Shown here one piece after another: positions 257 to 49,273 of a stretch of 64,000 bases of DNA (the stretch's first letter is position 1; the number at the start of each line of letters is the position of its first letter). Source of the stretch: Octopus vulgaris (lineage: Eukaryota); NCBI GenBank assembly GCA_951406725.2, contig OX597822.1:25482001-25546000 (forward strand), read 5' to 3'. The position numbers and the translations under genes were made by a program. The notes below the pieces were generated by a model, which had not been told where the DNA came from, made no database searches, and saw nothing but the letters and a program-made list of their open reading frames with translations.

Positions 257-590
257 AAGGTGGTGAACTGGCAGAAACGTTGGCACCCTGGGCGCATCCT
301 TTCGTGGTCGATTAAATAAGTACCAGTTACGCACTGGGGTCGATATAATCGACTTAATCCGTTTGTCTGTCCTTGTATGTCTCCTCTGTGTTTAGCCCCT
401 TGTGGGTAGTAAAGAAATGGGTATTTCTCCTGACTGTACGTCCTGAGTACAAATTCCGCCGGGGTCGACTTTGCCTTTCATCCTTTCGGGGTCGATAAAA
501 TAAGTATCATTTGAGCACTGGGGTCGATACTATCAACTTACTCGCTCCTGGGACTTGCTGGCCTTGTGCAAAAATTTGAAATCAATATTA
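257..590 (+). mobile_element. Nested family-A SINEs: a Tx1-tailed SINE (~296-419) inside a host SINE head
   Basis: Host head 257-295, then SINE body and tail GCCCCTTGTGGGTAGTAAAGAAAT, then the host resumes at GGTATTTC (420). Confidence 0.75.
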
Positions 591-1194
591 GATACACAGG
601 ATCGATAAAAGGTGGGGTGGTTATGATCATGGATGGAAATCACTTTGATTATAAGTCTCCTCAATTATTACTGACTTGGAGTAAAATAACTTATAATAAA
701 TGTATAGATCTATACATCTGGTGGTGATGGGTTTGTCAATAAAATCAACCGCGTTACTTGACATTTTAATTTTTTTTATTTAGCGTTCCCAGAAACGCAT
801 AAGACAAACTTGATCTCAGCCATAACAATGTCGTCTTTTATTTCAAGAATAGTGTACAAGGACTATATGTTCTGTTCTTTTTTTAAGAAGAAATAGCGTG
901 GTAAGAGAAAGAATCGGCTGCTATTTCTTGCATGTAGAACCAAGAGGCTTCTTACACTGTAATTTAGATAATTTATTACTTGTTGTGTCGAGTTGACTTT
1001 TACCTTTTTGGGACTTGCGTATTCTGTACTCTAATTCAGACTAGAGATTATCATTATATACATTATTTACATTATTTATATTTATTTACATTTATTTACA
1101 TTATTTATATTTATTTACATTATTTATATTTGTACATAATTTCTCATCTCTTAAATATAGAACTGTAGAGATTATCACTTGTCTCGAATTGGCT

Positions 1195-1655
1195 TACTTT
1201 TGGATCTGGATTATAGTTTGAATTATGCACAACGACTGCTATGCTAAAAGTTTGGATATAATCTGGACTGTAATTTTAAATACAAATATGTCGCAACATT
1301 TAGACTAGGACTGAGAATCTGATTACATGATGTCTAGTACGTCACAACATTTAAACCTAAATTCTGGTTTAAATTATGGCTGGTGTGCCACAAATTTAAT
1401 ATCTGATCTCTAGTTCTGATTGTATGATGATTGATATGTGATAAGTTTTAAATTTGGACTCTGGTTATCATTGTATGACGAATGGTGTATCACAAAATTT
1501 CAACCTGGATTTGATTCCGAATATATGATGAGTGGTATGTAATCATCTTTAAGAACTGGACTTCCGTTCTCTCGTATAAAGACTTGTATGACGCAACTTT
1601 TAAACCTGGATTGTAGTTCTGTTTGTATGGTGAGTGGTTTATTACATGTAGTTTC
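1195..1655. repeat. Degenerate ~50-bp tandem repeat (minisatellite), about 9 units
   Basis: Recurring units resembling AAACCTGGAYTSTAGTTCTGATTGTATGATGAGTGGTATGTCACAACATTT. Confidence 0.6.
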
Positions 1656-1659
1656 TATT

Positions 1660-2090
1660 GTTGAGTTTGGCTTGTCACCACTCTCCTGTCACACGCCATA
1701 TGTCCGTGGGCAACTATGGAGTGAACTTTAGGGCTTATAGATCTAATATTTTCCTATCCTTCCTGATTACCAGTTCCTTTATGCTACTCATATCTGCACT
1801 AGGGCTGCTTAGGAGGTTATTATGTCCTAGCATATGTGCTGCCTCATTTATTTTTCGTATTTTCCAGTGGTGTTCTCTGTCTATTATTTTAACTTCATCT
1901 CACTGGGGGAAGTGGTCTCCGTTTCTCCATACACGATCAGCTATACTCGATTTATCAATATCTCCCCGTGTCACAGCTTTGCAATGTTTCTCTACCCTTA
2001 TTTTGAGGGGGTGGCATGTTTCGCTTTTGTATAACCTACCACAGGTGCATGGGGTGGATTACACGCAGTCAGAGAGAACAGATTTTTTAT
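1660..2090 (-). mobile_element. Penelope-like element 3' remnant (GIY-YIG endonuclease region), degraded
   Basis: Manual minus-strand translation TPCTCGRLYKSETCHPLKIRVEKHCKAVTRGDIDKSSIADRVW...VKIIDREHHWKIRK resembles the PLE GIY-YIG domain; contains an in-frame stop. Confidence 0.7.
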
Positions 2091-2554
2091 AATAGATGTA
2101 TATGCATACAAAGGAATCAATTATTATTATTATTATTAGGTTATGATATTATTCCTATTAGATAAAGTATAAAAAAAGGAAAGAAAAAATTACCAAAAGA
2201 GAAATAATAGTGGAATTTAAATGATAAATCAATCTTAAGATTATTGTAGTTATGTAGGAATGAAAAGGTATATAAATGAGGAATACACACACACACACAC
2301 ACACACACACACACACACACACACACACACACACACACACACATATATATATATATACATACACACACACACATATATATATATATATTTATAAATATAT
2401 ATATATATATATATACGTGCAAACATACCCATAGGTACATACATATTTCATGTGTTGAGAAGGGAGGATTACTGTAGTAGTTAGAATTTTTCTTTCTATA
2501 ATTACAATAGTTATACTCAAATATATATAAATATATATATATATATATATATAT

Positions 2555-2765
2555 AGTTAATCCAAACATAAAAACACAAAGAGAAAACACAACAAAGCGA
2601 GGACGTGGAACAAGTATAGGGTTATTGGACGCTCAGGAAAGGAAAGAAAGAAGGAGAATTGAACGTTTCGAGCGGAGCACTTCGTCAGAAACATAGGAAA
2701 AGGAAAGATCCAAGGAAGGGAAGACGGAGGAGAAAAAAAATCGCCAACGATACACATGCGGTCAC
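2555..2765 (-). mobile_element. Short Penelope-like terminal-repeat fragment with a minimal hammerhead-like motif
   Basis: Inverted homolog of 7970-8168; minus strand 2688-2662 reads CTGACGAAGTGCTCCGCTCGAAACGTT. Confidence 0.55.
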
Positions 2766-47661: not shown

Positions 47662-47906
47662 ATGTAATACCAAGTGCAACCAAAAGTATCAGTGGGGAGG
47701 CGGGGCTCGTGGGGTCCGAGCTAAACCCGCACCCACTCCACCCGTAATGTCTTCCGGTCTGTCCTATCACTCGATTTTTGTCCATTTATTGTTATTCATG
47801 AAAATTTTTAAACCCGATTTATTGTAAAAACCCATTCGTTTGTCTGACCCCATCATCAGATTGTATTGTCCCATCTGTGTTCGCCCCTTGTGGGTAATAA
47901 TAAAAC

Positions 47907-48200
47907 AACATGGAGGAAAGCACCTTCAAAAAGTATCTTTGTGCGACTATGAAAGGTATCTAATCAGAGGCGGTAAATTCGCCACAATAGAAGCAAGGTT
48001 CGAGTCAACGGAGCGTGCAAGGGAGTACTCGACTCGAACCTTGCAAAGTGGAAATATTTTATTTTTACCTTTATGTCTGGGATGTAGGTCGTACCGGAAA
48101 AAAAATTTTAATGCCCCCCCCCCCCCGAAGTAGAGGTAGGCTGGATTGTAGTCACACTTCTATACAAGAGGGAGGACAAGATACAATTGATCGAAATTAT
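47907..48200 (+). pseudogene. Degraded internal fragment of a related ORF1
   Basis: YLIRGGKFATIEARFESTERAREYSTRTLQSGNILFLPLCLG aligns to YINRGKKYGTVEVRFTSEEVAKKLSMEPIKAEDIVLLPLYKG. Confidence 0.7.
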
Positions 48201-48361
48201 AAGAGACGGGCTAACAATTCCAGTCTGTTATATATTTTGAGTATTGTTATCACTAGCGATATCAAGATATAACTTTGTATTTTGTATTTTATGTGTAGAT
48301 GTATATATATATAGATGCACATGTAATATGTACACATATATATATACACATATATACATGC

Positions 48362-48403
48362 ACTAGCACTATGACCCGGCAACGACGGGTCTTTAATGCT
48401 AGT
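48362..48403. mobile_element. Helitron-like 3' terminal hairpin ending in CTAG|T
   Basis: ACTAGCA..GACCCG-GCAACGA-CGGGTC..TGCTAGT. Confidence 0.5.
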
Positions 48404-48870
48404 ATATATATATATATATACATATATATATATACATACACACACGTGTGTGTGTGTGAGAGAGAGAGAGAGAGAGAGAGAGAGAGAAAGAGGGAATGAC
48501 AATCAGACAGACATACAGACTGACAAATAGTTAGATAGATAGTTTAGACACCATAAGCAAACGAGTAAGATTGGCAGTCTGTTGTTTTAGATGACTGTGT
48601 AGTCACGACCTCACATAGGAGCTCATTCAGTTCTCACATTCTTGATCAAGCGGTATGTCGACGTTGTGACAACTGAAAGGCAAGTGAGGAGCATGAGCAG
48701 TCAGTTAGTATTCATCTTCAATTTGGTTGACGGGAATAACGGGAATCGAACTCATGACCTTATGCTCTAGAGTCCAACATCTTTGGCCATGAGTCTACCC
48801 ACCCCCACATACACATACATATATACATGCATACACACATATGCGCAGCTGTATCTGTGTGGTAAGAAGA

Positions 48871-49273
48871 AGGCGGCGAGCTGGCAGAATCGTTAGCACG
48901 CCGGGCGAAATGCTTTGCGGTATTTCGTCTGCTGTTACGTTCTGAGTTCAAATTCCGCCGAGGTCGACTTTGCCTTTCATTCTTTCGGGGTCGATAAATT
49001 AAGTACCAGTTACGCACTGGGGTCAATATAATCGACTTGATCCGTTTGTCTGTCCTTGTTTTTCCCCTCTGTGTTTAGCCCCTTTTGGGTAGTAAAGAAA
49101 TAGGTATTTCGTCTGTCTTTACGTTCTGAGTTCAAATTCCGCCGAGGTCGACTTTGCCTTTCATCCTTTCGGGATCGATAAATTAAGCACCAATTACGTA
49201 CTGGTGTCGATCTAATCGACTGACCCCCTCCTAAAACATGTTGGGCCATGTGCCTAGAGTAGGAAAGAATATT
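48871..49273 (+). mobile_element. Nested family-A SINEs: a Tx1-tailed SINE within a host SINE head
   Basis: GGTATTTCGTCTG at 48919 and again at 49103, immediately after the tail GCCCCTTTTGGGTAGTAAAGAAATA. Confidence 0.8.

Follow-up and report, generated by a model that had tools for sequence, protein, structure and literature searches.

A 64,000-nucleotide stretch of the Octopus vulgaris genome (contig OX597822.1, positions 25,482,001 to 25,546,000; the window) raises the question of why short interspersed elements (SINEs) with an apparently tRNA-derived head and a Tx1-type tail end repeatedly at one base within the head of another SINE. A preliminary description of the window had proposed that these SINEs are inserted into SINE heads by the machinery of Tx1-like long interspersed elements (LINEs). 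A search of the genome (2.80 Gb, 227 contigs) supports targeted insertion of this kind: the endonuclease of a Tx1-like LINE very probably nicks the SINE head at position 48/49, where both the LINEs and the SINE that shares their tail insert. The SINE targets include copies of its own subfamily.

The terminal sequence TAGTAAAGAAAT is present three times in the window, each time followed by a single base (G, A and A) and then by GGTATTTC, which is position 48 of the SINE head and lies between the A box (about positions 11-22) and the B box (about 73-85), both placed by eye from the tRNA consensus. The three junctions are real, with exact matches at 420 (+), 27750 (-) and 49103 (+). No tRNA was detected in the window by ARAGORN, nor did Rfam match one over 48850-49300. 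The SINE subfamilies A (Tx1-type), B1, B2 and C have a common head and distinct tails, and the parts downstream of the three junctions do end, as first described, in three different tails: C type, decayed CAAT Tx1 type and B1 type. The head, as read at locus 3, is an imperfect inverted repeat that would form a long hairpin with a loop at 44-47 (z -4.3 as RNA). Locus 1 has a possible 11-bp outer duplication, TATTAGATACA, at 237-247 and 586-596, while the host body at locus 2 contains an internal deletion and its tail is followed by (AT)n. The 5' junctions had been described as differing from locus to locus, which holds for locus 1, with its truncated insert and missing head bases; loci 2 and 3 are both seamless. 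The motif at 48919, taken at first for a duplication, is merely the first unit's own position 48, so that these two loci are alike. Because loci 2 and 3 are seamless, the three window loci alone are insufficient to establish targeted insertion.

The junction is very common in the genome as a whole. An exact 27-mer of the tail has 53,386 matches, and 19,271 of these (36%) are followed by AGGTATTTC, where chance would give 0.3 (from base composition) or about 4 (from the window frequency of GGTATTTC); the enrichment of flanks that the preliminary description had proposed to look for is thus present. Several units per tandem array enter these counts, which therefore overstate the number of insertion events. 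Among the first 100 tail matches on C1, 56 continued into a SINE body by script and about seven more by eye, and the remaining flanks mostly start GGTA or ATAT. When 65 distinct loci were picked by the B1 tail alone, tail A was found by eye at position 48 in 19 and at position 15 in five. These SINE samples were drawn largely from the beginning of C1, were in part selected for having the junction, and favour young copies through exact matching. In its accessible text, PMC4494074 regards a Tx1 family as target-specific when more than 20% of its flanks lie in one repeat; for SINE A the share is at least 36%. A second fixed junction lies at head position 14/15, inside the A box, where it follows 2,436 of 13,736 exact CAAT tails and is used mainly by CAAT-tailed SINEs (for example L120, L146, L176, L181 and L182). 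Tails of B1 and C are likewise found joined to other SINE heads at about positions 15-40 (L251, L254, L113, L239), at short stretches like the tails' own ends, where priming by microhomology may be possible.

LINEs were found to end at the same base. In L158, a LINE 3' end is joined to position 48 of a B1 copy, and its 3' untranslated region, used as a query lacking the target, collected an older LINE family with 40 matches on many contigs. All 30 that were read run on into the target, 26 of them at position 48 by script and one at 47, the other three having a deleted, truncated or unreadable host. The copies are broken and match the query at 85-93% identity; in seven that are full length, GGTATTTCGTCTG stands at either end, with a 13-14 bp duplication starting from the junction. 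A protein search with a piece of an older copy recovered a younger family (98.4% identity among 12 copies), which ends at the position-48 site in 29 of 29 cases. Its exact tail has 73 matches, the first 30 of which, partly the same loci as in the protein search, include 29 in the target: 27 at position 48, one with a deleted host and one at the target copy before an older LINE. The remaining tail is off target, at GATATT, with its own duplication. With the 20% threshold applied to these LINEs, the shares are therefore 30/30 for the older family, 29/29 for the younger and 29/30 for the exact young tails. The possibility that tRNA genes are the true target was rejected, as no readable LINE junction continued into one.

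Three younger LINEs have an open second reading frame (ORF2) of 1,134 aa with apurinic/apyrimidinic endonuclease (APE), reverse transcriptase (RT) and zf-RVT domains, and in L386 PF03372, PF00078 and PF13966 all score above cut-off. L386-L388 possess the endonuclease motifs N, E, Y, D-x-N, D and H together with FADD, and the CCHC zinc knuckle of ORF1 (PF00098) is present in L388 and L391. The best named homologue is a 'Transposon TX1 uncharacterized 149 kDa protein' (31%) and the best solved relative is human L1 ORF2. Both SINE-targeting families appear to be Tx1-like. The last 47 nt of SINE A align with the tails of both families, and with that of an intact LINE in the window, with several mismatches each.

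The inserted elements were compared with their hosts. Young LINE copies differ from their majority by 0.64% in ORF2, while their downstream hosts diverge by 3.6-5.8% and positions 3-36 of the upstream heads by 5-10%, indicating insertion into pre-existing SINEs. The host parts downstream of the SINE junction belong to four subfamilies with four different tails, and when each host was paired with the A unit upstream of it, the host was the more diverged of the two in 39 of 56 pairs and the less diverged in 10 (p=4e-6). In a B1 tree of 107 rows, 31 label changes are required for the 51 parts preceded by a SINE tail, the mean after shuffling being 35.8; parts of less than 140 nt or without a found tail end were left out, and bootstrap values were unsettled. 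The downstream halves form no single clade with co-inherited variants, as a composite SINE would require, and a single propagated dimer was rejected in view of the varied, older hosts. Full nests, which have an inner duplication, are uncommon, at 71 exact matches, and 26 of the 30 read have tail A with the target at its end; the duplications are of 13-20 bp, start at position 48/49 and, in L285, L288 and L291, include variants private to the host. Taken together, LINEs at the same base, older and varied hosts, the lack of a clade and the duplication of host variants support targeted insertion well. Neither of the outcomes that the preliminary description held would refute it, one clade or random flanks, appeared. 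Position 19 was also considered as a marker of A versus B1 heads, and was rejected as not diagnostic.

Nearly all nests are seamless, with no duplication at the junction, and the origin of their heads was examined through allele content and divergence. Allele 43G is present in 14 of 50 heads of A..B1 composites and in 27 of 71 solo A copies, and in none of 46 solo B1 copies. Divergence at positions 4-14 is 0.098 in the composites, 0.095 in solo A and 0.166 in solo B1; over positions 4-25 the composite heads behave as solo A, and at 26-47 they are intermediate. The head of seamless nests thus mostly comes from the insert. The young LINEs behave similarly: 19 of the 20 copies fetched start with a SINE head, which at positions 3-36 varies like old hosts, at 37-63 is near-uniform (2.3%) and, in full-length copies, has 43G in 18/19 and 48C in 19/19, including one B1 and one B2 host. 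Head overwriting by the young LINE is therefore seen where hitch-hiking of a ready-made composite is excluded. A collapse of full nests by crossovers along the head was rejected, since it predicts host-like positions 4-14, which were not seen. The opposite strand of the head hairpin was examined for insertion at the mirror site, with 0 of 318 tails found there and one inverted insertion at 136.

Such hitch-hiking could nevertheless be envisaged for the SINEs, if a modest number of targeted insertions were followed by transcription of whole head-A-body-tail units from the promoter in the head, the units being copied by the LINE that recognises the last tail. Insert-type heads in composites would be expected, as would outer duplications with the B1-type start AATAT; RNA polymerase III terminates at a run of four T, and tail A has none; and some solo B1 copies are diverged as little as A, with B1 enriched among the downstream hosts. 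However, the 51 downstream B1 parts show neither a clade nor sibling clusters, no clear outer duplication was visible by eye around any of six composites whose truncation lies at or beyond position 63, and the young LINE overwrites heads likewise in demonstrably older, different hosts. We therefore consider it improbable that the composites arose mainly in this way, although some whole composites may have been mobilised.

A number of observations nonetheless weigh against targeted insertion as set out here. Between 37 and 44 of the first 100 exact A tails have no SINE body after them, so that SINE A is far laxer than the LINEs. Neither SINE-targeting LINE has a tail identical to that of the SINE, and a LINE with the exact SINE tail was not found with one gapped pattern (4 matches). 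All 17 of the 5'-incomplete older LINE copies are without an upstream head, which the model leaves unexplained; a deletion, in the course of insertion or later, could plausibly account for this. Downstream hosts are B1 unusually often (36 of the 43 non-A hosts that were typed), divergence is lower in these B1 parts than in solo B1 (0.070 vs 0.091, p=0.008), and 30 of 500 label shuffles on the B1 tree reach a value as low as 31, so that slight clustering of these parts is possible. Outer duplications flank 22 of 41 A..B1 composites and 17 of 38 solo B1 copies, with shuffled controls below 1%, and together with the insert-type heads they are equally expected from mobilisation of whole composites. 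Their mismatch rates (0.054 and 0.062) do not separate the two histories, and dating the duplications by mismatch was given up as having no power. Finally, no empty allele was seen at 48500-49800, where contigs from four runs were overwhelmed by SINE matches and did not extend across the site.

The base at the junction itself bears on how the site is chosen. After a SINE tail, base 48 is G in 231 of 254 units, although C occupies it in 49 of 189 A heads; after the young LINE it is mostly C, even in B1 hosts (L414, L401). Base 48 thus follows the element, which makes it likely that the nick falls at 48/49 or that a short trailer of the RNA is copied. This is one of the points in favour of an explanation by RNA-DNA pairing, according to which run-on transcripts would pair with loosely specific nicks at GTATTT-like sites and SINE heads would win by abundance. 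In the same direction, L395 and L396 lie in different hosts and yet have variants in common on either side of the LINE, and CAAT tails prefer a second site, AGAA(A/T)C at position 15, which is like their own end. In contrast, a pyrimidine stands at -1, outside the duplication, in 12 of 14 off-target sites (a small sample, with two of the rows being SINE fragments), and sister families with similar tails, described below, have different strict targets. Among the cases described in the accessible text of PMC4494074, it is mainly the endonuclease that sets the target. A GGTAT-like sequence is present in both duplicated copies at 12-13 of the 14 G-starting off-target sites, and the idea that GGTAT was wholly copied from RNA was rejected beyond its first base. 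We consider pairing unlikely as the main determinant of the site; it could also act alongside targeting by the endonuclease.

In principle, the junctions could come about with no targeted insertion at all, if SINE copies were duplicated in tandem or underwent unequal exchange or conversion with one another. Signs of such exchange were seen, in that adjacent units lie within 2.7% of each other in 15 of 78 arrays, as against 3.1% of between-array pairs; three of five arrays of five or more units have near-identical neighbours; units of the array at C1:4,676,258 have private variants in common; and variants were shared between first and last units more often than in shuffled pairs (13 of 109 against 3.7). 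Processes at the DNA level cannot, however, put unrelated 5-kb LINEs at one base, which refutes them as sole cause, nor can they make full nests with short duplications, and two-unit arrays differ by 0.086 on average, near the 0.094 of unrelated copies. We regard an origin of the junctions by this route as very improbable; DNA-level amplification accounts for the growth of long arrays only. Homogenised SINE-derived arrays with units of about 185, 101 and 64 bp were observed at L082 (C1:4,676,258-4,677,962), L135-L140 and C10:17,996,023-17,996,504, and are incipient satellites.

For targeted insertion by the Tx1-like machinery, the following course may be proposed. The APE domain would nick first at 48/49 and again some 13-20 nt further downstream, and the first nick would prime reverse transcription, with ORF2 gripping the shared tail of the SINE RNA in trans. 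Since the first 47-63 nt of the SINE correspond to the sequence immediately before the nick, the end of the cDNA could anneal to the host head and replace it, in the manner of R2. What remains would be a single head, an extra unit of 184 bp and the outer duplication of the host. The target would be rebuilt at each insertion, so that repeated rounds could build head-to-tail arrays, to be lengthened later by unequal exchange. The RNA of the young LINE would have target sequence at both ends (about 37-63 in front and at least base 48 behind), which may aid aiming or joining. Both the specificity of the endonuclease and any benefit of a safe harbour are our inference. A more speculative extension, which we hold with rather less than even confidence, is a self-feeding loop. 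Here the LINE would nick the promoter region of the SINE that it mobilises, be transcribed from within that SINE and carry target RNA at both ends, while the SINE, with the same sequence as the DNA upstream of the nick, would overwrite old heads with young ones and rebuild promoter and target at each insertion. Success of the SINE would then multiply the sites open to the LINE, renew tens of thousands of RNA polymerase III promoters and seed 184-bp satellites, with tail variants switching between sites 15 and 48.

R2 uses a restriction-like endonuclease and a 28S rDNA target. According to the accessible text of PMC11331408, R2 template RNA with upstream target homology yields a seamless 5' junction by annealing of the cDNA, with no duplication. 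In the octopus, unlike R2, homology is provided by the head of the SINE itself and the endonuclease is of the APE type; by analogy, the seamless junctions here likely arise through cDNA annealing as well. The octopus tRNA-derived SINEs OK, OR1 and OR2 were reportedly described by Ohshima and Okada in 1994, and the head and body studied here presumably resemble OK, again an abundant octopus tRNA-SINE. These SINEs of 1994 are cited in the accessible parts of PMC4758252 and PMC4824008.

The closest known system is Tx1-Mar/SINEU-3 of crocodilians, for which we draw on the accessible text of Kojima 2015 (PMC4494074). There too a Tx1 LINE and a passenger SINE prefer one site in an abundant transposon, SINE insertions occur in tandem at the site, and hitch-hiking is also a rival explanation. 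Their target is, however, a Mariner DNA transposon, whereas here it is the passenger SINE's own head and those of its sister subfamilies; and tandem SINEU-3 copies are separated by a duplication, whereas most octopus nests are seamless, their head having been overwritten, and result in an array of 184-bp units. The same text lists other target-specific Tx1 elements, namely Tx1 in Tx1D (Xenopus), Keno (U2 snRNA), Kibi and Koshi (microsatellites), Tx1-9_AMi (Harbinger), and Tx1-8_Crp and Tx1-4_AMi (long terminal repeat elements). These have an APE endonuclease in common with the octopus LINEs, whose sister families use (TATC)n and another repeat, and differ in that no SINE is among the targets listed there. 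A LINE targeting its own passenger SINE with head replacement was not found in searches of the open literature, although supplements, Repbase, Dfam and subscription papers may hold one. In the accessible text, PMC13282606 (with neither 'target' nor 'nested'), PMC8967140, PMC4758252, PMC4824008 and PMC5035012 make no mention of SINEs as targets or of self-targeting.

The window itself contains an intact Tx1-like LINE (Table 1), flanked by ACATGGAGGAAAGCA at 42650-42664 and 47908-47922, and the preliminary description had looked to an ORF2 APE domain for the nicking of SINE heads. Its ORF2 is 72% identical to that of the younger SINE-targeting family, and the endonuclease domains 71%, making the two sister families. 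This LINE was rejected as mobiliser at the SINE site, given that in 14 of 16 near-identical copies the sequence that comes next is a repeat of the CATGGAGGAAAGCACC type, also designated the CATGGAGG repeat and beginning with CATGGAGGAAAGCACC; the other two run into another LINE copy and into other DNA, and four more distant copies have other flanks. This repeat is the family's strict target, so that its endonuclease is the wrong one for a SINE-head nicking assay. The window family is very young, many copies being 99-100% identical in the endonuclease domain (L306-L335, L366-L381), and has an open frame of 1,132 aa, often in tandem at about 5.26 kb. The stack of elements before it, with ORF1 only, appears to use the same target repeat and not the SINE site. 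A further Tx1-like family lies in (TATC)n microsatellites (L104:4560-5790, L213:5730-6850).

Table 1. Features of the window, with coordinates counted from its first base.
Feature	Coordinates	Strand	Remarks
Locus 1, host SINE head	259..294	+	positions 1-36 (37-47 missing)
Locus 1, insert	295..419	+	5'-truncated Tx1-tailed family-A SINE, positions 107-231
Locus 1, host body from position 48	420..586	+	C-type tail (to about 586)
Locus 2, full-length family-A SINE	27751..27979	-	A-specific 43G/48C head alleles
Locus 2, host body from position 48	27598..27750	-	decayed CAAT-type Tx1 tail (to about 27598)
Locus 3, full-length family-A SINE	48872..49102	+	231 bp
Locus 3, host body from position 48	49103..49272	+	B1-type tail (to about 49272)
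Intact Tx1-like LINE	42665..47907	+	related tail; ORF2 at 44263-47661 with APE, RT and zf-RVT
ORF1-only elements	34000..42649	+	head-to-tail stack of at least six, Tx1-type tails, no ORF2; long open frames at 34402, 35912, 37612, 39195 and 41004; directly precedes the intact LINE
Open frame	22815..23315	-	presumably resembles a mariner transposase fragment
Broken reverse-transcriptase element	50571..52912	+	three open frames; presumably of another LINE type

The usual relation of LINE and SINE is reversed in this system, as it is the passenger that provides a place for the LINE to land. Nests hold about one in three family-A tails and a similar share of the B1 copies sampled (24 of 65 loci, by eye), and with so many SINEs nested, SINE counts, ages and subfamily trees are distorted by chimeras of a young head and an old body. 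The two young sister LINEs, each with an open ORF2 and a different strict target, are a natural pair for mapping how an APE endonuclease gains its specificity, a question relevant to site-specific retrotransposon tools. The system further provides a way in which a SINE can give rise directly to tandem repeats.

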